In this document: positions 487 to 11,275 of the stretch, in pieces | Numbering within the stretch: the first letter of the stretch is position 1 | Layout: each line of letters opens with the position of its first letter | Virus genome (UHGV): UHGV-0112548 | Source of the DNA: a virus | DNA: 13,225 bases | Direction: 5' to 3' (one strand) | Position numbers and translations under genes: made by a program | Notes under the pieces: generated by a model | Databases searched by the model: none | Told to the model about the DNA's origin: nothing | What the model saw: the letters and a program-made list of their open reading frames with translations, nothing else

Positions 487-809
487 ACTTTCAGGCCCCT
501 CTCATGTAACCAGTGGGCTGCACGCAGCCTGGCGTTTTCCTCACCGGCAAGCAGTGAGCGGATAATCCCGACCGCCTCGCTGTCGTCGTCCTTCACCGCG
601 GTATGAAGCGTTATCCCCCGTGCCACGCCACGCTTTATCGTGATGACGCCTTTTTTCTCCAGTGCGCGAAGATGCTCCACCGCTGCATTCACTGAACGGT
701 ATCCCAGCATGGTTGCCACCTCCTGATTGGTTGGCGGGAAGCCACGTTCTTTCTGATAAGAAATCAGCATATCCAGCACCTGCTGCTGGCATTGAGTTAA
801 CGTCGTCAT
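483..809 (-). CDS. LexA-like DNA-binding-domain protein (no S24 peptidase domain)
   Basis: 108 aa; first ~70 residues (LTQCQQQVLDMLISYQKERGFPPTNQEVATMLGYRSVNAAVEHLRALEKKGVI) align with the LexA N-terminal winged helix. Protein ends after a short linker with no Ser/Lys peptidase module. 4-nt ATGA-type overlaps on both sides (806..809 and 483..486). Confidence 0.65.
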   Translation of the reverse strand: MTTLTQCQQQVLDMLISYQKERGFPPTNQEVATMLGYRSVNAAVEHLRALEKKGVITIKRGVARGITLHTAVKDDDSEAVGIIRSLLAGEENARLRAAHWLHERGLKV

Positions 810-1949: not shown

Positions 1950-2891
1950 TCACCCCCTGAATCCTGCCGGGATCTGGCTGTAGTCCACGTTGTCGTAACT
2001 GGATTTGAAGTACGGGTCTTCGCGTTTTTCGATGTACGTGCTGACGGACGGCGATAAGCGCAGGGAAAGCTCATCCCATTTTTCCCGCAGCTTCGACGGG
2101 CTGAGCACGTTACGGCACCAGAACGGATCGCGGCTGACGCGGCTGTACATCTCGCAGATTTGTTTGTGAGTACGACCATCCTGCACACACATCAGGCGAA
2201 TTTCGTTTGCCCAGGCTGTCCAGTTCGGTTCTTTGGGACGAACCACCTCGCCGTCACATTCGGCGGCCTGCTCGTACAGGGCGATGATTTTTTTCCAGAG
2301 CCACTGTGCGCAGGTCAAATCATCCTGCGTTCCCCACTGGCGCTTTTTAGGGCTGAATACAACCGCATCAGGATGGCGAGTTAAAAAATCCTGTTCATCC
2401 GTCTGCGTGTCCGGTTGCGAAGCGTCCGGACGAGAAGTTTTTTTATCTGACGGATCATGTTTTGATTTTACTGACGGATCCCCGCCAGATTCTGACGGGT
2501 GAAAACCCGCTTTTTTGCCAGATTTCGACGCATCAAATTTTGACGGGTCAGATTTTGATGCGTCAGATTTTGACGGGTCAGAATCTGACAGTTGAGAAAA
2601 TGCCGCTGCCTGAAGCTTCGCAACGTTAAGCTGATAAACATTCGACGCATTGCGGTTACCCTGGCGACGCGCCTTACGCGTTAACCAGCCTTCTGCTTCC
2701 AGCCGTGCGATAGCCGTTCTGACGGTACTCATCCCCGCGCCAATCTGGCGGGCAATGGTTTCAATTGATGGCCAGCACACACCTTCGTCATTACTGAAAT
2801 CAGCCAGGCGGGCCATAATTGCCACGCTGGATAATTTCATGCCTGATGCAGCGCAACCATCCCATACATAGCCGGTTAATTTAGTGCTCAT
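1950..2891 (-). CDS. phage replication initiator (HTH N-domain, low-complexity linker encoded by iterons, conserved C-domain)
   Basis: 313 aa; N-terminus has a helix-turn-helix-like segment (SIETIARQIGAGMSTVRTAIARLEAEGWL); the SDxSKSD linker is encoded by the tandem repeats at 2445..2591; GAGG SD before the ATG at 2891. Arrangement mirrors lambda O with ori inside the gene. Confidence 0.6.
   Translation of the reverse strand: MSTKLTGYVWDGCAASGMKLSSVAIMARLADFSNDEGVCWPSIETIARQIGAGMSTVRTAIARLEAEGWLTRKARRQGNRNASNVYQLNVAKLQAAAFSQLSDSDPSKSDASKSDPSKFDASKSGKKAGFHPSESGGDPSVKSKHDPSDKKTSRPDASQPDTQTDEQDFLTRHPDAVVFSPKKRQWGTQDDLTCAQWLWKKIIALYEQAAECDGEVVRPKEPNWTAWANEIRLMCVQDGRTHKQICEMYSRVSRDPFWCRNVLSPSKLREKWDELSLRLSPSVSTYIEKREDPYFKSSYDNVDYSQIPAGFRG
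2445..2591. repeat. iteron array (about 8 copies of a ~15-bp GATTYTGACGGRTCA-like unit) with adjacent AT-rich patch; putative origin of replication
   Basis: Read directly: units at 2445-2459, 2470-2484, 2487-2501, then four phased tandem 15-mers at 2521-2535, 2536-2550, 2551-2565, 2566-2580 and a partial unit 2581-2591. AT-rich gaagtttttttatctga at about 2433-2450. Confidence 0.6.
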
Positions 2892-2900
2892 GACCGACCT

Positions 2901-3239
2901 CTATTTCCCTGAATTTACGACGAAACTGTTCGAGCGGGCTGAAGCACTCATGCTCATAGCCTTCGCGGAGGTAGATAACCCGTTGTGTTTCCGGCTCCCA
3001 ACGAATGACTCTGACGGGCACTCCGTAGTGATCTTTGAACCAGCGGTTAACTTGTCGCAAAGGACTGTCTCCTTCTGCCGGTTGAAATCACCCACAGCCC
3101 ACTCTGCAAAGCTGTGGGTTACAATTTCCCTGTCACCTGGTACATTCACTGCATAGCAATATTCCACCTTCGCTTTTCCACCCGGTACAGGAAGCGCAAT
3201 CAGTTGCGAGCAACGGTAGTGTGTTGTTAAACTGTTCAT
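2901..3239 (-). CDS. hypothetical protein; apparent frameshift near 3060-3087 (C-terminal part continues in another frame to 2881)
   Basis: ATG at 3239 overlaps the upstream stop (ATGA). The first ~55 aa look protein-like, the frame then turns Ser-rich, while the -1 frame reads ..[42 protein letters not shown].. and stops at 2881, overlapping the initiator start. Confidence 0.4.
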
Positions 3240-3820
3240 GCGTTAGTTTCTCCACAACCAGAAGCAATCGACGCCACGACGCCCGGAGCTGCACACTCGC
3301 GGGCGTTACTCTTTTCCGGCGCACAAAAAACACGAAATAACAGTGTTAAATGCTCCTGCCACTTCGCCATTACTTGGTAGCTGTTCTCTTCGATTTGCTC
3401 ACGCTCAGCCTGGTCAATAACTCCATCAGCAGTTGCCTTGCGTAAGTACTGGGAATGCTTGCCAATCCATTCTATTGACTCCATCAGCCGCTGATTAATG
3501 TCACCATTGTCAATGTCATCAATGACCACCAGCGGCACAAACACCCCATTACTACGACGGGCTATTGCATCTGTTACATGCCTGGTACCACTGGCATCCT
3601 GTAAAACCATGGCCCACTCAAGTGGAAAAATTTGATCCCCACCGCTACGCAGTCTGTTATGCAATTGATCTTTTGCTGGGGTGATATCATCAGATTTATA
3701 CAAACCAAGAATTTCTGCTGCTTCCTCATAGCCATGAGGTAAATCAGCAATCGTTCTTCGTATTGCTGCCACCAGCCATGCTGGTTGTTTATCAACTTTC
3801 CATTCAGGTTCTTTACCCAC
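3236..3820 (-). CDS. CII-like / YdaT-like early regulatory protein
   Basis: 194-aa ORF with GTG start at 3820 and GAGGAA SD 8 nt upstream; sits directly downstream of the Cro-like gene, where lambdoid phages carry cII. Family assignment is from position and recollection only. Confidence 0.45.
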
Positions 3821-3847: not shown

Positions 3848-4045
3848 TTATGCCGCAGCACTGTTAGTCTTTTGATATAAAGACACGTCAACTTTCAGTT
3901 TCCCGTTAGTAATTTTTTCTAACTGGTACGCTCGGCCTTCAGGAATAATCTCAGGCCACTCTGAAACAGACGGATGCTTAATACCTAGGGCTTCGGCAGT
4001 TTTACAAACTCCGCCGAAATAATTAATCACGTCGGATTTCCGCAT
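3848..4045 (-). CDS. cro: Cro-like repressor (YdaS-type HTH)
   Basis: 65 aa, divergent from the CI gene; NYFGG..KTAEALGI..SVSEWPE..IP..RAYQLE..T.GKLK matches the small Cro/YdaS-type HTH pattern; GGGAG SD upstream of the ATG at 4045. Confidence 0.7.
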   Translation of the reverse strand: MRKSDVINYFGGVCKTAEALGIKHPSVSEWPEIIPEGRAYQLEKITNGKLKVDVSLYQKTNSAAA

Positions 4046-4140
4046 TTCTGTCTCCCGTTAAATTACGTTAAGCAGAAATGTAGGATATCCAACATACCAA
4101 TGTCAAGAATCCTACATGGGCATGTGGTAGGATTGCCTAC
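4046..4140. promoter_or_regulatory. divergent PR / PRM-like promoter-operator region
   Basis: On the minus strand: TTGACA (plus 4101-4106), 18-bp spacer, TACATT (plus 4077-4082) with the 18-bp operator ATGTAGGATATCCAACAT (4078-4095) over the spacer and -10. A second symmetric element AATCCTAC-N11-GTAGGATT (4108-4134) overlaps a TAGGAT -10-like hexamer 7 nt before the cI ATG, implying a leaderless cI mRNA as at lambda PRM. Confidence 0.55.
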
Positions 4141-4794
4141 ATGATGAACATGAGTGATCGTATTCGCCAAAGGCGAAAAGAACTGAACCTGACACAACAA
4201 GCACTGGCTGATTTGACTGGTGTGAACCGTGTCACGGTTACTGGATGGGAAAAGGACGACTACCAACCAAATGGAGCCAACCTTCAAGCCCTAGCCAACG
4301 CACTTAAATGCGATCCTCTGTGGCTTGTTAGCGGAAAAGGCTCGCCTGAACCAAAGATAAATCTAAAACCTGAAATATTCGCAGTTAAAAAAGTCCCCCT
4401 CATCTCGTGGGTTCAGGCGGGTTCATGGACAATGACGGAGCCTGGTGTCAGGAAAGAAGATGCTGAAGAGTGGGTTTATACTACCGCCCTTGTATCAGAA
4501 ATGGCATTTGCACTACGGGTCCGTGGTGATTCAATGACCAATCCCCTCGGCTCACCATCGATACCAGAAGGTTCTATCGTTATCGTAGAGCCAGATATTA
4601 TTGATACAGAGTGTATTAACGGAAAAATCGTTGTTGCCCATATCAATGGTGGGCAAGAAGCGACACTCAAAAAATTTGTTGAGGACTGGCCGAACAGGTA
4701 TCTCGTCCCACTAAATCCTAACTATAAAACTATTGAATGCGGTGAGAACTGCAGAATAGTTGGTCTTGTCAAACAAGTAATAATGGATTTTTGA
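4141..4794 (+). CDS. cI: CI-type prophage repressor (HTH_XRE N-domain + S24 LexA-like autopeptidase C-domain)
   Basis: 217 aa; N-terminal HTH (LNLTQQALADLTGVNRVTVTGWE), C-terminal serine motif VRGDSM and downstream lysine (ATLKKF); divergent from cro across an operator region; no SD upstream. Confidence 0.85.
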   Translation: MMNMSDRIRQRRKELNLTQQALADLTGVNRVTVTGWEKDDYQPNGANLQALANALKCDPLWLVSGKGSPEPKINLKPEIFAVKKVPLISWVQAGSWTMTEPGVRKEDAEEWVYTTALVSEMAFALRVRGDSMTNPLGSPSIPEGSIVIVEPDIIDTECINGKIVVAHINGGQEATLKKFVEDWPNRYLVPLNPNYKTIECGENCRIVGLVKQVIMDF

Positions 4795-4815: not shown

Positions 4816-4840
4816 AAACCGGGGTATCCCCGGTTTTTTT
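4816..4840 (+). terminator. rho-independent terminator downstream of cI
   Basis: AACCGGGG-TAT-CCCCGG GC-rich hairpin followed by a run of seven T (4834-4840), about 20 nt after the cI stop. Confidence 0.7.
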
Positions 4841-4856: not shown

Positions 4857-4910
4857 ATGTAGGATAACCAACATAAACTCTTGACACTCACATGTTGGAT
4901 ATCCTACATT
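4857..4910 (+). promoter_or_regulatory. PL / OL-like promoter-operator
   Basis: TTGACA at 4881-4886, 18-bp spacer, TACATT at 4905-4910. Operator ATGTTGGATATCCTACAT (4892-4909) is the exact reverse complement of the PR operator at 4078-4095; a second copy ATGTAGGATAACCAACAT lies at 4857-4874. Confidence 0.55.
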
Positions 4911-4992
4911 TGTTTTTAGAGTAGCCGCCGGTGGCATATGAATAACCGGATGATTCGCTGACAGAAAACTTAGGTTGGGGGTAGAGGTTTAC

Positions 4993-5358
4993 ATGAATCA
5001 TTTATTCACATGCTCATTTTGCGGAGCAACCGAACTGGGAGCGATAAAGATCGTCGCAAAAGGTGGTAAGGACGAACCTGCCATCTGTTCGGAATGCGTA
5101 GTCACATGTGTAGAAAAAATGATCCTGACTAAAAAATCAGAGGCTGAAAAACCAACCTCTGATAACGAAATAATATCAGTCGATAAAAAACTATTTAAAG
5201 AGCTTCTTCAGCTTGTCCTCAACCTTCCTGATTTCGGAAGTAAGCTGGCTGCTGTTGACATTGATAGTAGCTCCACATCGACAAGTGAAACTTTTGTTCG
5301 ACTTGAGCCAAGCGATTTTCTTCTTCGTCTTAGTGCCGCACTTAGGGCATGCGGGTAA
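4993..5358 (+). CDS. small protein with ClpX-type C4 zinc finger (ClpX N-terminal zinc-binding-domain-like)
   Basis: First ORF downstream of the PL-like promoter; ATG at 4993 after a GGGGGTAGAGG SD (the track start at 4975 is an alternative). CSFCGATELGAIKIVAKGGKDEPAICSECVVTC parallels ClpX [30 protein letters not shown]; no AAA+ module follows. Confidence 0.55.
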   Translation: MNHLFTCSFCGATELGAIKIVAKGGKDEPAICSECVVTCVEKMILTKKSEAEKPTSDNEIISVDKKLFKELLQLVLNLPDFGSKLAAVDIDSSSTSTSETFVRLEPSDFLLRLSAALRACG

Positions 5359-5388
5359 CGTAATTTCCTGGTTATCAAAAGCGCCCAT
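5191..5388 (-). CDS. small zinc-ribbon protein, antisense to the 3' half of the ClpX-zinc-finger gene
   Basis: 65 aa from the second ATG (5388), which has an AAGAGGG SD about 7 nt upstream. Contains CPKCG..(18 aa)..CRCG and a Lys-rich tail. Overlaps 5191..5358 of the plus-strand ORF, so one of the two may be a shadow ORF. Confidence 0.4.
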   Translation of the reverse strand: MGAFDNQEITLPACPKCGTKTKKKIAWLKSNKSFTCRCGATINVNSSQLTSEIRKVEDKLKKLFK

Positions 5389-5481
5389 AAACATCCCTCT
5401 TGGTTGTGTGAGAACACCAAGATACCACCGCGCCTGATGTGGTTAAAAGCAGGCTAAAGCAATAACAAGTAACTCCCTGTT

Positions 5482-5531
5482 CTGGCGGCCCGGTGTTTTC
5501 CCGTGTATTTCCGGTAACCGCCAGCCTTTTT
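5482..5531 (+). terminator. putative terminator-like hairpin (tL-like) in the leader upstream of rdgC
   Basis: CTGGCGG (5482-5488) pairs with CCGCCAG (5519-5525) around a ~30-nt loop, followed by CCTTTTTC. The loop is long for a classic terminator. Confidence 0.3.
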
Positions 5532-5536
5532 CAGGG

Positions 5537-5648
5537 CACAACAGAAAAGGGCATCACCGGGCGACGGGCTCATAACCCAATCCACCCGGGCAAAAAGAAA
5601 GCGGTCTCTGCAAGCCGCCGACCAATGCAGGTGCCCTTCTCTGTTGTG
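5537..5648. other. long-range inverted repeat (17 bp, one mismatch) enclosing ~78 nt; predicted long RNA stem in the early-left leader
   Basis: CACAACAGAAAAGGGCA at 5537-5553 versus TGCCCTTCTCTGTTGTG at 5632-5648 (reverse complement CACAACAGAGAAGGGCA). Confidence 0.4.
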
Positions 5649-5700
5649 TATGGAGAAACTAACTTTTTAGCGCCGGTGCAGAGGCGTTGAGGAACCGAGA

Positions 5701-6618
5701 ATGAACAATCCGTTTTTCAAAAATATGTTGGTGTATCGCATTAGTCGCGATTTCACCATCAACCAGGAAGAGCTGGAACAGCAGCTTGAACTATTTCGCT
5801 TCACTCCATGCGGTAGCCAGGATATGGCAAAAACCGGTTGGGTATCACCACTTGGTCAGCTGTCAGATCGCTTGCATCACACTGTCAATAATCAAGTGTT
5901 GTTGGTTATTCGCCGGGAAGAAAAAATACTGCCATCTCCTGTCATTGCTGAAGAACTGCGCAAGCGTGTGTCGCGTCTGGAATCCGATCAGGGGCGTCGC
6001 CTCAAAAAAACTGAGAAAGATTCGCTGCGTGATGAAGTGTTGCACTCCCTGCTTCCTCGGGCGTTCTCCAAAAACTCGACTGTTAGTTTGTGGATCAACG
6101 TCACCGACGGTCTGATCATGGTTGATGCAGCCAGCGCTAAACGTGCCGAAGACTCACTGGCCCTGCTTCGTAAAACTCTCGGTTCTCTCCCGGTGGTACC
6201 GCTGACTATGGAAACGCCGATCGAACTAACTATGACCGAATGGGTTCGTTCCGGTAGTGCGCCTGCTGGCTTTGGCCTGGGTGATGAAGCCGAACTGAAA
6301 GCTATTCTTGAAGATGGCGGTATTGGACGCTTTAAAAAACAGACTCTGGTCAGTGACGAAATTCATGTGCATCTGGAAGCTGGCAAAGTAGTTACAAAGC
6401 TGTCTATCGACTGGCAACAGCGCATTCAGTTCGTTCTTTGCGATGACGGCAGCATCAAACGCCTTAAGTTCTCTAATGAGATTACAGAACAAAACGACGA
6501 TATCGACCGTGAGGATGCGGCTCAGAGGTTCGACGCTGACTTTGTTCTGATGACCGGCGAGCTTATCTCTCTCATTAACGGATTAACAACCTCTCTCGGC
6601 GGCGAAGCCAAGCGATAA
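5701..6618 (+). CDS. rdgC: RdgC-family recombination-associated protein (prophage-borne paralogue)
   Basis: 305 aa; [62 protein letters not shown] and [14 protein letters not shown] track E. coli RdgC along its full length as I recall it. GAGGAA SD before the ATG. Confidence 0.85.
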
Positions 6619-6726
6619 ACACCAGGCAACAATTACCCCCATAAGCATGGGTTGGGTTGCTGCACGCTAAATTCAGCAATTCATTAATTTAATGGCGCGG
6701 TGCAGCGCGCCAATATGGAGAAAACC

Positions 6727-7266
6727 ATGAGCTACATTCAGACATTATCCGGCAAACATTTTAATTACCTCGATATCCAACAGGACGATATCGTGATCGA
6801 GGATATTGCTACCGCGTTGTCTCATATCTGCCGCTTTGCAGGGCATCTTCCTGAGTTTTACAGCGTCGGCCAGCATAGCGTTTTAACCAGCCATCTCGTT
6901 CCGCAGGAGTTTGCCTTAGAAGCACTGCTTCATGATGCCGCCGAAGCCTACCTGCAAGATATTCCCTCACCGCTTAAGCGCCTGTTACCGGATTACCAGG
7001 TGATCGAAGCTCGCGTAGACGCTGCTATTCGCCAGAAATTTGGCCTACCGACGGAGCAACACCCAACAGTGAAATATGCCGATCTGGTGATGCTCGCCAG
7101 CGAACGCCGCGATTTTGAGATTGACGAAGGTTCCGTGTGGCCATGCCTCGATGGCGTTGTCCCGACGGACCTATTCATCATCAATCCAGTTCGTCCAGGC
7201 CAGTCATACGGCATGTTCATAAATCGCTTTAATGAGTTGATGGAGCAGCGTCAATGCGCCGCATGA
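6727..7266 (+). CDS. HD-domain phosphohydrolase (YfdR-like 5'-deoxynucleotidase class)
   Basis: His at LSHICRFAGH and the HD dyad at EALLHDAAEAY fit the HD superfamily. Start chosen at the ATG at 6727 with GGAG 6 nt upstream; the track start at 6700 is a GTG. Confidence 0.6.
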   Translation: MSYIQTLSGKHFNYLDIQQDDIVIEDIATALSHICRFAGHLPEFYSVGQHSVLTSHLVPQEFALEALLHDAAEAYLQDIPSPLKRLLPDYQVIEARVDAAIRQKFGLPTEQHPTVKYADLVMLASERRDFEIDEGSVWPCLDGVVPTDLFIINPVRPGQSYGMFINRFNELMEQRQCAA

Positions 7267-7430
7267 AGGTAAAAGAACTCGTGGCGGAGGCGTTTGCCTC
7301 CGTGGCTGAATTGCCACCAAAGCATGCATCGCTTATGCGCGAAGTCGCTACCAGGCTTGAAGCTACGTTCGCAGCATTAACCGAATCATTGGCGCAACTG
7401 GAACAGGAACGTAAAGGTAAAACGCAATGA
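7254..7430 (+). CDS. hypothetical small protein (58 aa)
   Basis: Not in the ORF track (under 60 aa). My translation: MRRMKVKELVAEAFASVAELPPKHASLMREVATRLEATFAALTESLAQLEQERKGKTQ. Start overlaps the HD-gene 3' end and the stop overlaps the next ATG as ATGA, consistent with translational coupling. Confidence 0.35.
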   Translation: MRRMKVKELVAEAFASVAELPPKHASLMREVATRLEATFAALTESLAQLEQERKGKTQ

Positions 7431-7681
7431 CCGTATTTGAATATCTCCAGGGCCACCCGAACGCCACCAGCGGTGAAATCGCAAGGGCGATGGGTAAAAA
7501 GACGCCAGCCGTAGCCAGCGCACTATCTCAGCTTTATGCAACAGGGAGAATTGTTAAGTCTGGCGCACGCGGTGGGATACCGACATACCGCGTCAATGAT
7601 CTGCCGTTTGGATGCAGCAATAACTTAACGCTGATATTTAACCAGCTTCTGCGAAACGTCCGCAAAGGAGCAGCCCAATGA
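7427..7681 (+). CDS. small winged-helix-like DNA-binding protein
   Basis: 84 aa; SGEIARAMGKKTPAVASALSQLYATGRI has the helix-turn-helix / wing pattern; ATGA overlaps at both ends. Confidence 0.45.
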   Translation: MTVFEYLQGHPNATSGEIARAMGKKTPAVASALSQLYATGRIVKSGARGGIPTYRVNDLPFGCSNNLTLIFNQLLRNVRKGAAQ

Positions 7682-7995
7682 GCAAATTTACGGCATTACC
7701 AGTAGAACGCGACCAATACGGCTACTGGACTCACCCCGTCTATGAGCAATTTTGCGATGGTCGTGAATTTATCTCACCTGATGAGTTCAACGCCTGGCTG
7801 GATAAAAACGGCCTCGAATGGACGGTAGTTTACCGGGATGAAGAAGACATCGATCCTGAAGTTGATGGTTACGATATTTCAGCCTGGCAGCCAGAATCGC
7901 CAGCCGGTGAAGGTTGGTTTGTCGGTTCAATTCACAACACCGAAGATGGCGCGGTATGCATCTGGTTACGTAACGTTGAAGGCGGTGCAGCATGA
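7678..7995 (+). CDS. hypothetical phage protein
   Basis: 105-aa ORF, coupled to neighbours by ATGA overlaps; acidic, no motif I recognise. Confidence 0.5.
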   Translation: MSKFTALPVERDQYGYWTHPVYEQFCDGREFISPDEFNAWLDKNGLEWTVVYRDEEDIDPEVDGYDISAWQPESPAGEGWFVGSIHNTEDGAVCIWLRNVEGGAA

Positions 7996-8750
7996 CAGTC
8001 CATACACTGAAGCAATGCCGCCCGGACCAAGAAGAAACCGAGTATTTCTGGAAGTTGTTTCATGCGGCACAACGGAATGACGCTCGCTGGCACGGTAGTG
8101 AAATCAGCATTATCGCCGATGAACTATCCCGGACGGATTTAGATCGTAATCAAAAACTGTTTCTTCTCCGTGCCTGGCAAGTGCTGGTAGACGACAAAGG
8201 TGGATTCGGGCGCTTGATGGGTGCCTTTGATACTTACGTCTACAACATGCAGGACCCTGATGATGACTGCGTAGCCTGGAAGCCTGAACTGGCTAAGCTG
8301 CTACAGGATGGCAATCTGTTTGATGTTGTGCTGACGGCATATCAGGAGGCCTGCCATGAGGGGATCGTTAATTGGGAGGCAGCGGTATCTCTTTCTGAGG
8401 AAAACGTAGAACTGAAGCGCAAACTCTACGCAGCAGAGAATCAAATAGCAGAACTGGAGGCGCGGACGTTCAATCCTGCAATTCTAGATGTGATAGCAGA
8501 GCGCCAGCGGCAGAAAGCCGTTGAGGGCTGGACGTCTGAGCATGACGACGCCTATCAAAACAGTGAGCTGGCAGATGCTGCAGCTTGCTATGCGATTAAC
8601 GCACACAATCAAGGCCTCTCAACGCCAGCGCATTGGCCGTGGGCTCCTGATTGGTGGAAGCAATCTGGGCCGCGTCGTGACCTTGTGAAAGCTGGCGCAC
8701 TTATTCTGGCCGAAATTGAACGCATAGACCGCCAGGAGGCCGCCCAATGA
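7992..8750 (+). CDS. hypothetical phage protein with central coiled coil (possibly Ead/Ea22-like)
   Basis: 252 aa; coiled-coil segment NVELKRKLYAAENQIAELEART; C-terminal WTSEHDDAYQNSELADAAACYA. The family label is a recollection only. Confidence 0.5.
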   Translation: MTVHTLKQCRPDQEETEYFWKLFHAAQRNDARWHGSEISIIADELSRTDLDRNQKLFLLRAWQVLVDDKGGFGRLMGAFDTYVYNMQDPDDDCVAWKPELAKLLQDGNLFDVVLTAYQEACHEGIVNWEAAVSLSEENVELKRKLYAAENQIAELEARTFNPAILDVIAERQRQKAVEGWTSEHDDAYQNSELADAAACYAINAHNQGLSTPAHWPWAPDWWKQSGPRRDLVKAGALILAEIERIDRQEAAQ

Positions 8751-9139
8751 GCAACATCAACAAACGCGCAACAGAGATGCTGATTGAAAACGGAGTGCTG
8801 GTTGCCGACACGCTGAGGCGTTTGGCTGATAACGAAATCGACTCCGATTACTTTGCTATTTGCCACACAAACGAAAACGGAACTGAAATTGAATGCGAGC
8901 TGGCAATTACAGATTACGCACGCCAATCTGCTGGAATCGTTGATGATCTGGTAAATGCGCTGGAAGCCGCAGAGAAGCGCATTGCAGAACTGGAAGCGCG
9001 GGAAATATCGCTCCCAGAACTTAGCAGCATGCTTCATCGAACAGATTTTCACGAGGATTACCAAACGGTAATGGCATACAAAGTTTCTGAGGTCATCGCT
9101 GCAATCCGCGCCGCTGGCATTCGCATCAAAGGAGAGTGA
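8747..9139 (+). CDS. hypothetical phage protein with coiled coil
   Basis: 130 aa; AEKRIAELEARE repeats the motif of the upstream gene; ATGA coupling at the start. Confidence 0.5.
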   Translation: MSNINKRATEMLIENGVLVADTLRRLADNEIDSDYFAICHTNENGTEIECELAITDYARQSAGIVDDLVNALEAAEKRIAELEAREISLPELSSMLHRTDFHEDYQTVMAYKVSEVIAAIRAAGIRIKGE

Positions 9140-9140
9140 T

Positions 9141-9575
9141 ATGGCGTTAACACACCGCGAACTCTGTCAGATTGCGTACAAGTTCCTTAAGCGCAACGGG
9201 TTCAAGGTTTGTTTTCATGACCGCTTTATAGCTGTAACCAGTACCGGAGAACAGCCAGATGCTATGGGATTCAGAAATTCAGCATCATGCCTGATAGAGG
9301 CGAAATGTTCTCGTGCTGACTTGTTGGCAGATAGAAAAAAGCGTTTTCGTAAAAATCCGTCTCTTGGAATGGGCGACTGGCGATTCTTTATTAGTGAGCC
9401 GGGAATTATTTCAATTGAGGATTTACCACCTGGCTGGGGATTACTTCACGTTGTTAACGGAAGAGTACGGAAAGTGCATGGGTGCCCAAGGGTAATTGCT
9501 GTTGGGGTAATCCTGACGATAAGCCATTTACTGGAAATAAGCAGGTTGAATGCGATTACATGTTATCTGCATTAA
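9141..9575 (+). CDS. PD-(D/E)xK nuclease-fold protein (VRR-NUC-like); C-terminus possibly frameshifted
   Basis: GEQPDAMGF followed by CLIEAKCS gives a PD...(E)xK arrangement. After about residue 105 the frame looks poor, while another frame (9458..9655) reads protein-like and ends in ATGA overlap with the next gene. Confidence 0.5.
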   Translation: MALTHRELCQIAYKFLKRNGFKVCFHDRFIAVTSTGEQPDAMGFRNSASCLIEAKCSRADLLADRKKRFRKNPSLGMGDWRFFISEPGIISIEDLPPGWGLLHVVNGRVRKVHGCPRVIAVGVILTISHLLEISRLNAITCYLH

Positions 9576-9651
9576 GGCGCATGGAGTTGAGAGGGCACCT
9601 TAATGAAATATATGACGGTGTAATTGTTAATAAGAAAGAAGGAAACGCGGC

Positions 9652-10353
9652 ATGATCACTATTACCAAAGAGCGACTGCTGACAATCAAGCAGTGGCGCG
9701 AAACATACGGACCTGGTAGCAACGTTGTACTGCCAGCAGAAGAAGCGGAAGAACTGGCACGAATTGCTCTGGCATCGCTGGAAGCAGAGCCTATTGGTGA
9801 GGTTTCAGAGAAGCGACTCGGCCTTGTTATGGATGGAACGGTAGACCTTGGCGGGAAATCAACTTATCGCATCATTAAGGGAGAAAAAGCGATGAAGTTG
9901 TTGCCGCTGGGGACGAAGTTTTATGCCGCCCCTCCAGTGCCAGTAGTACCGGAAGAAAAACCAATGCCTAACCCTCTTAAAATGTACGCGGTTGATGCTG
10001 TTGCCGCTATTGCAGAGGTGAGAGGCTGGAACGCCTGTCGTGCCGCTATGCTTCAGGGTAAATCCGAACAACCACAAAACGCACAACAAAATATTCCGGA
10101 AAATATTCACGGTGGCAACTCTCCGGTAACTCCGGATGGTTGGATAAGCTGTAGTGATCGAATGCCGGAAAAGAATCAGAACGTGCTTATTTCAGTGAAT
10201 TTCGATAGCTCTCTGGTTGAACCGCTAATATGCTCCGCACGCTATACCGGAAGCACCTTTCGGCGCGGAGATGCAACGATTAAGCCGGGTAATGGTATTG
10301 AGCAAGCAACTCACTGGATGCCGCTACCGGAACCGCCGCAGGAGGTGAAGTAA
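9652..10353 (+). CDS. DUF551-like phage protein
   Basis: 233 aa; C-terminal DGWISCSDRMPE ... ATHWMPLPEPP resembles the conserved end of DUF551-family phage proteins (from memory). Confidence 0.55.
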   Translation: MITITKERLLTIKQWRETYGPGSNVVLPAEEAEELARIALASLEAEPIGEVSEKRLGLVMDGTVDLGGKSTYRIIKGEKAMKLLPLGTKFYAAPPVPVVPEEKPMPNPLKMYAVDAVAAIAEVRGWNACRAAMLQGKSEQPQNAQQNIPENIHGGNSPVTPDGWISCSDRMPEKNQNVLISVNFDSSLVEPLICSARYTGSTFRRGDATIKPGNGIEQATHWMPLPEPPQEVK

Positions 10354-10925
10354 TGAATAACTTAATGATCGACCTTGAGACGATGGGGAAAAATAAGGAT
10401 GCACCGATCGTTTCCATTGGCGCGGTGTTCTTCACTCCAGAAACCGGAGACATCGAACAAGAATTCTATACGGTTGTTAGCCTGGAAAGTGCTATGGAGC
10501 AAGGAGCTACACCTGACGGCGATACCATCCTGTGGTGGTTGAAACAGAGCTCTGAAGCACGAGCTGCAATCTGTATTGATGATACTTTGTCGATCAGCGA
10601 TGCACTCTCTGAACTGAGCCATTTCATTAATCAGCATGCAGACAATACAAAATATTTAAAAGTCTGGGGTAACGGGGCCACCTTCGACAACGTAATTTTA
10701 CGTGGAGCTTACGAGCGAGCAGGACAAATCTGCCCGTGGGCGTACTGGAATGACCACGATGTACGCACGATCATTACGCTTGGGCGTTCCATCGGATTCG
10801 ACCCAAAAATGGACATGCCTTTCGATGGCGAACGGCACAACGCCCTGGCTGATGCCCGTCATCAGGCAAAATATGTTTCCGCTATCTGGCAGAAACTAAT
10901 TCCTGCCACCAGCACAGAATTATGA
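10353..10925 (+). CDS. DEDD-type 3'-5' exonuclease
   Basis: 190 aa; Exo I motif MIDLETMG, mid-protein VWGNGATFDNVIL, C-terminal HNALADARHQAKY (H-x4-D), the DEDDh pattern. Start overlaps the upstream stop as TAATG. Confidence 0.7.
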   Translation: MNNLMIDLETMGKNKDAPIVSIGAVFFTPETGDIEQEFYTVVSLESAMEQGATPDGDTILWWLKQSSEARAAICIDDTLSISDALSELSHFINQHADNTKYLKVWGNGATFDNVILRGAYERAGQICPWAYWNDHDVRTIITLGRSIGFDPKMDMPFDGERHNALADARHQAKYVSAIWQKLIPATSTEL

Positions 10926-10961
10926 TTTTCCCGGGTGCAGCCGGTTTTGATGGAGAAAATT

Positions 10962-11243
10962 ATGAACACCTTGTTTTTACTGATGGCTGAATTCAATACC
11001 CCTAACATTGAACTCTCAGCAGTTAGCCAGAAGTACTTTGGCATGAGTCCAGCCACGGCAGAAGCAAAAGCAAACGCTTGTAAGTTGCCCGTTCCAACAT
11101 ATCGCATCGGCACATCACAAAAAGCAAAACGTTGCATCAATATTCAGGATCTTGCGGAATACATAGACAAAAGACGAGAAGAAGGACGTATCGAGTGGGA
11201 ACAGGTCAGAACAGGCAAACAGAAGGGCAAAGAACATCACTAA
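10962..11243 (+). CDS. PrtN / excisionase-like small DNA-binding protein
   Basis: Start at the ATG at 10962 with GGAG 6 nt upstream (MNTLFLLMAEF..); resembles PrtN-family proteins as I recall them; last gene of the plus-strand operon. Confidence 0.5.
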   Translation: MNTLFLLMAEFNTPNIELSAVSQKYFGMSPATAEAKANACKLPVPTYRIGTSQKAKRCINIQDLAEYIDKRREEGRIEWEQVRTGKQKGKEHH

Positions 11244-11275
11244 AGAAAAAACCCGCCTGAAGGCGGGTTTTCAAA
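11244..11275. terminator. bidirectional rho-independent terminator
   Basis: A-run (11244-11251), stem ACCCGCC (11251-11257), loop TGAA, stem GGCGGGT (11262-11268), then TTTT. Serves the plus-strand operon and the convergent minus-strand gene. Confidence 0.7.

Follow-up and report, generated by a model that had tools for sequence, protein, structure and literature searches.

The segment studied here is a structured non-coding region upstream of rdgC in the virus genome UHGV-0112548. The whole stretch of 13,225 nucleotides (nt) that was analysed is referred to as the window, and coordinates are those of the window unless another locus is named. The window matches a prophage of Escherichia coli O68:H12 strain 97.3 at 100% identity and one of Nissle 1917 at 98.9%, and the early-left direction corresponds to its + strand. 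A promoter-like site and operators lie between the genes for a LexA-family repressor and a ClpX-type zinc-finger protein (Table 1), indicating that the ClpX-finger gene is the first gene of the early-left (PL) operon and that the gap between this gene and rdgC is an internal leader of the operon. The first-pass annotation, made by a model from the DNA letters, had described a leader of ~340 bp at this place. The non-coding gap (5359-5700) is 342 nt long, and all of the features that the annotation had reported were found where it had put them. The RNA of the flagged segment is predicted to be made from the PL promoter at 4881-4910, which was identified by a promoter scan.

The flagged segment consists of two adjoining modules, a hairpin designated T1 and a cassette of ~114 nt, which belong to the mosaic non-coding leader of a lambdoid prophage that lacks N (N-less). 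In T1, CTGGCGG (5482-5488) pairs with CCGCCAG (5518-5524), with an inner CCGG/CCGG, and is followed by CC-TTTTT-C (5525-5532); the tail after CCGCCAG reads CCTTTTTC. The cassette is closed by a long-range stem, P1. The annotation had given its arms as two 17-nt segments (5537-5553 and 5632-5648) with one mismatch. The 94% complementarity of these segments and the single A5546·C5639 mismatch were borne out, but the stem is longer than claimed and comprises 20 pairs, the wobble U5554·G5631 included. The arms enclose sub-hairpins, as had also been noted: P1 closes an interior of two branches, P2 and P3, and P2 ends in the apical hairpin GGG-CUCAUAA-CCC (5566-5578). RNA folding, which the annotation had proposed as a check, gave a z score of -3.1 for the 231-nt leader (5470-5700) and of -5.9 for the 112-nt core (5537-5648), which folds at -48.9 kcal/mol, a value equalled by none of 200 shuffled sequences.

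Covariation was assessed in 84 distinct homologues (alignment A1). The result showed that P1 is strongly co-varying, as expected for a conserved inverted repeat in RNA. Under the proposed structure 94.4% of the cells were paired, compared with 38-53% in controls with slid partners, and both sides had changed in 134 cells versus ~50 in shuffles, none of 500 shuffles reaching 134. Two pairs of P1 switch cleanly, namely pair 9/106 (GC in 50 sequences, CG in 34) and pair 15/100 (AU in 48, GC in 31). In P3, both sides of pairs 57/91 and 58/90 have changed across homologues, and in P2 the pair G24-C52 is replaced by A-U in three Phytobacter-type sequences. Run without guidance, RNAalifold recovered 18 of the 20 P1 pairs together with the GGG/CCC hairpin. 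It gave another pairing for the base of P2, implying that the branch topology is less certain than P1.

The wobble pairs also bear on the strand. On the + strand, 72 of the 84 sequences have U19·G96 and 22 have G·U at 3/112; both would be mismatches on the opposite strand, indicating that the RNA is the + strand, that is, the PL transcript. It could be argued that the inverted repeat is not an RNA feature, but a chance palindrome, a site acting at the DNA level or a piece of a gene on the minus strand, where the CAT of the loop becomes ATG. The minus strand of the window does fold slightly better (-58.9 kcal/mol), which is due to A5546·C5639 turning into G·U, and a minus-strand open reading frame (ORF) of 43 amino acids is listed at 5454-5585. 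However, the compensatory changes, the strand-specific wobbles, above all that at 19/96, and the retention of the cassette in many genera make such an explanation very improbable. A small minus-strand protein starting at the loop ATG was rejected, as the ORF ranges from 11 to more than 90 amino acids among homologues and its end is not conserved.

Homologues had been gathered by a pattern search with the core sequence and by BLAST. The core pattern matched more than 120 viral contigs, with matches in prophages of Citrobacter, Phytobacter, Kosakonia, Mixta, Buttiauxella, Enterobacter, Pseudescherichia, Leclercia, Erwinia and Klebsiella. BLAST found the cassette in phages SfV, SfII, SfIV, ST64B, mEp460, cdtI, LLS, Flotzy, Eeyore and phiNP, in Stx2c phages and in some Stx2a phages, and 306 of 5426 complete E. 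coli genomes carry it. There is one copy per locus, and neither the covariance-model search nor the locus survey revealed a second one in the PR operon or elsewhere. The distance from the end of P1 to the first large ORF is 47-51 nt whatever the ORF, which is yfdP-like in 84 loci, rdgC in 28 and another gene in a few. Upstream, the cassette begins 0-6 nt past a terminator-type hairpin and its U-run in ~93% of loci. In minimal leaders (loci L133, L080, L126, L075 and L036) it follows PL by ~20-30 nt with nothing between. In CPS-53 of K-12 (L189) the immunity region and the cassette are deleted; in the yfdO-yfdP gap of this prophage (L189 7240-7620) the yfdP ribosome-binding region GAUGAGGAGCAGCAAAAUG is kept, and tandem GAYGSGTCAGATTTT repeats lie upstream of it. 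The Rfam search that the annotation had suggested returned no Rfam 15 family at gathering score across the window, and a scan by E-value likewise yielded no family for the cassette; the cassettes of Flotzy, phiNP, SfV, CFT073, L126 and L133 gave no Rfam match either. A full-text literature search found no mention of the core sequence.

The cassette proved to be one of several that occupy the same slot. In a sample of 80 loci picked solely for a yfdP relative, 74 carried the cassette at more than 100 bits. The other six had different cassettes in exactly this slot (classes II-IV), which share the stem base CACAAC...GUUGUG and also the flanks with the main cassette, the interiors being unrelated or diverged. 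The P1 mismatch is likewise A·C in class II. Long leaders (Flotzy, phiNP and L035) contain several cassettes in tandem, each behind a terminator-type hairpin. A class IV cassette (L249) is close to a stem of the Qin prophage (L270 2673-2768) and bridges the arms of the main cassette and those of Qin.

This points to the dicBF operon of Qin. The ydfC-dicB region of K-12 Qin contains modules of this leader family, and L026 and Qin share modules outright. The covariance model of the cassette, R1, matched the Qin dicBF leader at L270 2673-2768, in the arms only and with a weak score (13.4 bits, E 0.008 in 5 kb), and the arm motifs common to both (alignment A4) are CA(C/U)AAC..AAAG.GCA and GUGC.CUUC..GUUGUG. 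Furthermore, a 21-bp long-range stem in Qin, which closes a branched domain, runs from 3 nt past the U-run of dicF to 13 nt before the ATG of dicB. It is known that a 190-nt DicF species, whose 5' end was mapped by primer extension, is lost in the absence of RNase III (PMC10448788, main text and Fig. S1) and that the 72-nt DicF arises when RNase III processes full-length dicBF mRNA (PMC5069750); both papers cite Faubladier et al. 1990. With dicF at L270 2883-2935, length arithmetic puts the 5' end of the 190-nt species at 2746-2751, within the 3' arm of the stem 2673-2693/2739-2758; for the 72-nt DicF it puts the 3' end at L270 2954, 12 nt into the 5' arm of the post-dicF stem. The RNase III ends of DicF thus appear to lie in two Qin stems, implying that the long-range stems of this leader family are RNase III substrates in the single locus where they have been studied.

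The arms of P1 are homologous to one of these Qin stems and its position is equivalent to that of the other, which would support a role in processing, and we infer that P1 of the window is cut by RNase III as well. P1 has what may be expected of a processing stem: a duplex of about two turns (20 pairs), arms similar to those of Qin and a place beside a terminator-ended leader RNA. An RNase III dimer accommodates roughly 22 bp (PMC6212723), to which the 20 bp of P1 is close. The annotation had left open whether the structure is a processing site, a cis-acting antitermination RNA or a small RNA (sRNA) gene. The first of these options gained indirect support from the Qin arm homology, the layout and the published ends, whereas the other two did not. 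As an independent unit, an sRNA gene is not borne out, the cassette being without a promoter or terminator of its own, although an RNA processed out of the transcript is possible. On balance, we are inclined to regard P1 as a stem at which RNase III processes a mosaic leader of the dicBF type.

In the mechanism that we propose, some PL transcripts would stop at T1 and end the conserved upstream leader RNA. In transcripts that read through, P1 would form and be cut near its middle by host RNase III, which would part the upstream leader RNA from the mRNA of rdgC and the genes downstream. The processed mRNA would then start with a short remnant of the 3' arm, followed by the GGAGAAAC tract, the small hairpin P4 and the ribosome-binding site, and the cut may affect rdgC expression. 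Cuts in both arms would also free the branched domain as a small RNA.

Several observations weigh against processing as the full explanation. The minimal leaders mentioned above (L133, L080, L126, L075 and L036) offer no upstream RNA worth releasing. The conserved mismatch of P1 and its purine/pyrimidine asymmetry are not accounted for. The link of the window cassette to RNase III comes from arm homology and our own mapping of published lengths onto Qin, where the ends were placed by RNA length; the 'positions 813/814' of PMC10448788 could not be related to coordinates. Moreover, cutting by RNase III does not depend on a particular interior, but P2 hardly varies, implying that being cut is not all that the cassette does.

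Table 1. Coordinates of the RNA elements, genes and signals described in the text (window positions unless a locus is given).
Feature	Position	Strand	Basis or remark
P1 5' arm, purine-rich	5536-5555	+	folding; covariation in 84 sequences; RNAalifold
P1 3' arm, pyrimidine-rich	5630-5649	+	folding; covariation in 84 sequences; RNAalifold
P1 internal mismatch	A5546 opposite C5639	+	alignment columns 11/104, unpaired in 73/84 sequences
P2, almost invariant branch with internal loops, an apical hairpin and the base CCGGG/CCCGG	5557-5589	+	minimum free energy structure of the window
P2 tip CGGGCUCAUAACCC: three G-C pairs and 7-nt loop	5565-5578	+	14 nt identical to the anticodon stem-loop of E. coli initiator tRNA
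P3, branch of variable length	5590-5628	+	alignment A1; 12-39 nt in homologues
Purine-rich GGAGAAAC, conserved, directly after P1	5652-5659	+	alignment A1; GAAGAAA in class II
P4, small GC-rich hairpin GCGCC-GGUGCAGA-GGCGU	5670-5687	+	just upstream of the rdgC Shine-Dalgarno sequence
T1, intrinsic-terminator-type hairpin CUGGCGG...CCGCCAG, then CCUUUUUC	5482-5532	+	folding, about -18 kcal/mol
Leader module B, ACCACCGCGCCUGAUGUGGUUAAAAGCAGGC	5424-5454	+	ahead of T1; conserved in Flotzy, Eeyore, SfV, CFT073
Alternative cassettes: class II L263, L234, L239; class III L230, L232; class IV L249, L005	L005 2596-2692; about 1340-1465 in the L2xx loci		
DicF-like hairpin, same position in other phages	Flotzy L005 ~2820-2875; phiNP L006 ~2440-2500; CFT073 L002 ~4935-5000		
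Hairpin just after PL, AGUAGCCGCC-stem-GGCAUAUGAAUA-stem-GGAUGAUUCG	4920-4958	+	loop GGCRUAYGAA..; 4-5-bp stem
PL-type promoter TTGACA-18-TACATT	4881-4910	+	promoter scan; operators 4857-4875 and 4892-4910 overlap
Mirror-image promoter-like TTGACA-18-TACATT	4106-4077	-	promoter scan
Operator repeat ATGTAGGATATCCAACAT, 18-19 nt	4078-4096 (PR side), 4857-4875, 4892-4910		repeat search
cro-like gene	3848-4045	-	
LexA-family repressor gene	4141-4794		
Repressor terminator	about 4819-4840		
ClpX-type zinc-finger gene	4993-5358		Pfam match slightly under threshold
rdgC	5701-6618		ATG 5701; Shine-Dalgarno GAGGA 5689-5693

The tip of P2 resembles the anticodon arm of E. coli initiator tRNA. The sequence of the initiator tRNA gene was verified (100% identity, 4 copies per genome), and its hairpin has the same form as the P2 tip. 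When 13 positions of the tip were left free in the search pattern, GGGCUCAU..CCC was kept in 141 of 144 loci. In addition, P2 is almost invariant from Escherichia to Erwinia, Mixta and Phytobacter, where the yfdP proteins are only ~65% identical, and P1 and P3 drift with compensation. The resemblance to initiator tRNA is real, and its meaning is not explained by the processing model.

An alternative is that the branched interior is itself functional, whether embedded in the transcript or excised, with the P2 tip imitating the initiator-tRNA arm so that the RNA acts as a regulator or a decoy. Its targets could be the P site of the 30S subunit with IF3, methionyl-tRNA synthetase, or an initiator-tRNA nuclease such as a VapC-type toxin. 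The identity of 14 nt in the same hairpin geometry (we put the probability of matching some E. coli tRNA in this way by chance at ~1e-3), the retention of the unconstrained tip in nearly all loci and the near-invariance of P2 across genera as against the drifting stems argue for this possibility, as do other tRNA-like pieces in related leaders (L035, L129 and phiNP). In L035, positions 1800-1925 score 40 bits with the Rfam tRNA model and have a 68-nt insert in the anticodon arm; in L129, ARAGORN calls a tRNA-Ile(aat) at 2210-2288 (-); and in phiNP (L006 2141-2278), T-arm-like hairpins GGUUCGAUUCC lie in a cassette with a long stem.

However, the homologous P2 of class II has the loop AACUAA instead of CUCAUAA, indicating that not all of the wider family has CAU. 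Variation is seen at loop positions 37-38 (AA, UC or UA), and a U at position 37 is unlike tRNAs. Just three of the five anticodon-stem pairs are copied. As for a tRNA-like fold, ARAGORN found no gene in the window, and RF00005 gave no match in 5300-5750 at E values up to 10. A tertiary contact, for instance to the P1 mismatch, is another possible role of the loop. A functional interior of this kind is an unlikely explanation, although one that is compatible with cutting of P1 by RNase III. In the combined form, a three-branch domain released by RNase III would bind a host component that reads the arm and would serve early in infection as a decoy or a regulator of translation initiation; we give this, too, a rather small chance. 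If it were true, the alternative cassettes would be RNA 'payloads' that can be swapped within one shared processing stem.

The segment between P1 and the first gene is also conserved. GGAGAAAC is always present between P1 and the first large ORF, and a hairpin in the place of P4 was found in 59 of 60 distinct tails, with (G/U)GCA in the loops and a compensatory variant, GCGUC...(A)UGCGC, in L073. It is conceivable, then, that the cassette, GGAGAAAC and P4 together form a cis-acting 5'-UTR (5'-untranslated region) element for translation or stability of the first gene, with no need for RNase III; such an element could be a 5' stabiliser, a stand-by platform for ribosomes or a compact structure that fends off Rho. 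The fixed spacing of P1 and the start codon and the constancy of GGAGAAAC and P4, despite varying genes and upstream contexts, are consistent with this idea. So is the finding that the cassette is the sole conserved RNA between PL and the gene in minimal leaders, and the ORF-free leaders of 400-900 nt in phiNP and Flotzy would presumably be exposed to Rho otherwise. Against it, a recombination boundary lies right after GGAGAAA, indicating that the cassette and the unit of P4, Shine-Dalgarno sequence and gene are separable. Folding showed that the cassette does not sequester the Shine-Dalgarno sequence, the 20-bp P1 is too stable for a switch, and the invariant P2 is explained no better than by RNase III processing. 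Such a 5'-UTR element seems improbable to us, and P1 as a processing stem remains our preferred explanation.

Three further candidates for this segment were rejected. A leader peptide starting at A/GUG after P1 would have 6-20 codons, which is the length expected by chance, lacks a Shine-Dalgarno sequence and has ACG at some loci. A pseudoknot of the CUCAU loop with AUGGAG or the start codon was discarded because the loop and tail variants do not covary. Competition of the P4 loop GCAGAG with the 5' arm of P1 was dismissed, as P4 is unchanged when P1 goes from CAGAG to CACAC.

Upstream of the cassette, the T1 family comprises 24 sequence variants in two forms, with compensatory change of G-C to U-A and C(C)U4-6 after all of them. 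A GC-rich hairpin with a run of 5-7 U abuts P1 in ~93% of 247 loci, a figure that combines 197 loci scored by a script with a visual count of the other long hairpins that have TTTTT as their tail. Module B, which lies ahead of T1 in the window, comes directly after the promoter region in L011 and L018. A small pseudoknot, with the pairings ACCAC/GUGGU and GCCUG/CAGGC, is predicted to be possible within it, and together with T1 it makes up a terminator-ended RNA of ~110 nt that matched no Rfam family. As it starts right after PL in L011 and L018, the RNA of module B and T1 is a possible early sRNA. In most phages the hairpin 5' of the cassette is a DicF-like terminator; that of L035 (2190-2238) scored 29.1 bits with the Rfam DicF model (E 0.001; gathering score 48). 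The DicF-like hairpins have a distinct conserved 5' part, UUGCUGUGUGUAGUC, and may form a paralogue family of DicF with another seed. In the window, T1 included, Rfam gave no match to DicF.

Antitermination was another of the options raised by the annotation: the cassette might be a put-like or nut-like signal for processive antitermination of PL transcripts in N-less phages. Its place in the early-left leader is equivalent to that of nutL or putL and directly follows PL in some phages, its unpaired bases are strongly conserved, and, like HK639 putL as annotated, it is confined to the left operon in one copy. N homologues are absent from these phages; for LLS, which carries the cassette, Casjens and colleagues found none and guessed at a put-like mechanism (PMC12315714). 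The annotation's remark that no N, boxA or boxB is evident was upheld: a boxA search gave two hits at two mismatches, as expected by chance, the first PL gene encodes a ClpX-type zinc finger, and no lambda-type nut site, with boxA (CGCUCUUA or GCUCUUUAACA), boxB and an N-like protein, was found in the window. A boxA in the 3' arm of P1 (UGCUCUU) was rejected, as this position changes in step with its partner in P1, and 31 of the 84 sequences have C there. A perfect rrn-type boxA, GCTCTTTAACA, is present on the PL strand in 17 of 249 loci (~7%), 1.0-1.8 kb upstream of the cassette and shortly after the promoter-proximal hairpin; in CFT073 (L002 4128-4142) it adjoins an inserted reverse-strand gene, and it is absent from the window.

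Other evidence speaks against an antitermination signal in the cassette. The covariance model of the cassette had no match in HK022 or HK639, and a BLAST comparison of HK022 and HK639 putL with the element-bearing loci gave one 15-nt match (E 0.19) and nothing else. The putL region of HK022 itself had no Rfam match, indicating that put in this region escapes the Rfam copy searched. In ~93% of loci the terminator-like hairpins are upstream of the cassette, not downstream, and a scan for intrinsic terminators, which did not extend to Rho-dependent sites, found no strong one on the + strand in 5700-11240. The slot also holds cassettes with unrelated interiors, which is hard to square with one conserved surface of RNA polymerase. 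Finally, a better-placed candidate exists. The stem of the hairpin just after PL (4920-4958) covaries among 38 variants from phages that differ in immunity type (CCGG/CCGG, CCCGG/CCGGG, CCCCA/UGGGG, CCUGG/CCAGG and CCACC/GGUGG), and the loop and flanks are conserved; CGAACAGGCAGGACGCCCACGA precedes it in most phages, although not in the window. This hairpin is a better candidate for a nut-like or put-like site than the cassette, for which antitermination is not supported and is in our view doubtful.

The genes that co-occur best with the cassette are those for YmfL (123 of 131 loci), DUF4222 (126 of 131), an O-like helix-turn-helix protein and a YfbR-like phosphatase. In the window, a YmfL-family protein is encoded after cro (3236-3820, -) and matches the Pfam family Phage_CP76 (CII of phage 186 type). 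YmfL was the sole regulator to co-occur strongly; as a protein partner of the N kind it was rejected, since it is CII-like (Pfam CP76) and not N-like. Two other hairpins were observed in the window. One, with a 12-bp stem followed by TTTTT, lies on the minus strand within the coding sequence of the ClpX-finger gene (5136-5163) and resembles a terminator of antisense transcription. The other (11247-11272), a strong hairpin rich in GC (GAAAACCCGCC...GGCGGGTTTTT) with its score on the minus strand, directly follows a PrtN-like gene and may be a two-way terminator that ends the early-left operon. In SfV (L150), the orf37 region of the PR operon gave above-threshold matches to C4 antisense RNA (82 bits) and isrK (64 bits) at 462-549 and 574-650 (-).

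Taken together, the cassette is best described as a probable RNase III-type processing stem of a dicBF-like early-left leader, a variant that matched no Rfam family, with a conserved and unexplained payload. Few non-coding features are as well conserved in N-less lambdoid phages and prophages, a large group that includes SfV, SfII and SfIV (Shigella), ST64B (Salmonella), Stx2c and some Stx2a phages, LLS and the Nissle 1917 and CFT073 prophages. The link to dicBF predicts RNase III cuts in P1 and suggests that the early leaders of prophages are assembled from interchangeable units, each made up of a terminator-ended sRNA, a processing stem and a payload. The finding bears on early-left transcription and processing in these phages, for which a recent paper had offered only the guess of a put-like mechanism (PMC12315714).

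Among known systems, put of HK022 and HK639 is likewise a structured RNA of the PL leader in N-less lambdoid phages, and in HK639 it is also present as a single left-operon copy. It brings about processive antitermination as RNA alone, by way of the zinc-binding domain of the RNA polymerase beta' subunit. However, put consists of two adjacent stem-loops of ~70 nt without a closing stem (PMC9378689), whereas the cassette has a closing stem and two branches and is preceded by terminator-like hairpins. The thrS operator and other mimics of the anticodon arm resemble the P2 tip in that a hairpin of the 5' leader copies a tRNA anticodon loop and three G-C pairs. The thrS operator is bound by threonyl-tRNA synthetase. 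In the cassette, three stem pairs are copied, a sister class is without CAU, and the binding partner is hypothetical. RNase III sites occur in the N leader of lambda and in the early mRNA of T7. Like P1, they are long imperfect duplexes that lie upstream of the start of the first gene in the early RNA of a phage with the same lifestyle; to our knowledge they have no conserved branched interior. With regard to the DicF sRNA (RF00039), the hairpins of related phages occupy the equivalent position in the operon, but their 5' seed is different and they score below the gathering threshold. The closest comparison is with the dicBF leader of Qin. The upstream hairpin of the window cassette (T1) is not DicF, the interior of the cassette is absent from both Qin and CPS-53 of K-12, and RNase III cleavage has been shown in Qin alone. 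Nevertheless, both leaders belong to a repressor-controlled early-left operon of a lambdoid prophage, and the dicF-dicB junction of Qin has the same order of elements as T1, P1 and rdgC in the window: a terminator hairpin, a U-run, a stem of ~20 bp with a branched domain, and the ribosome-binding site of the first gene.

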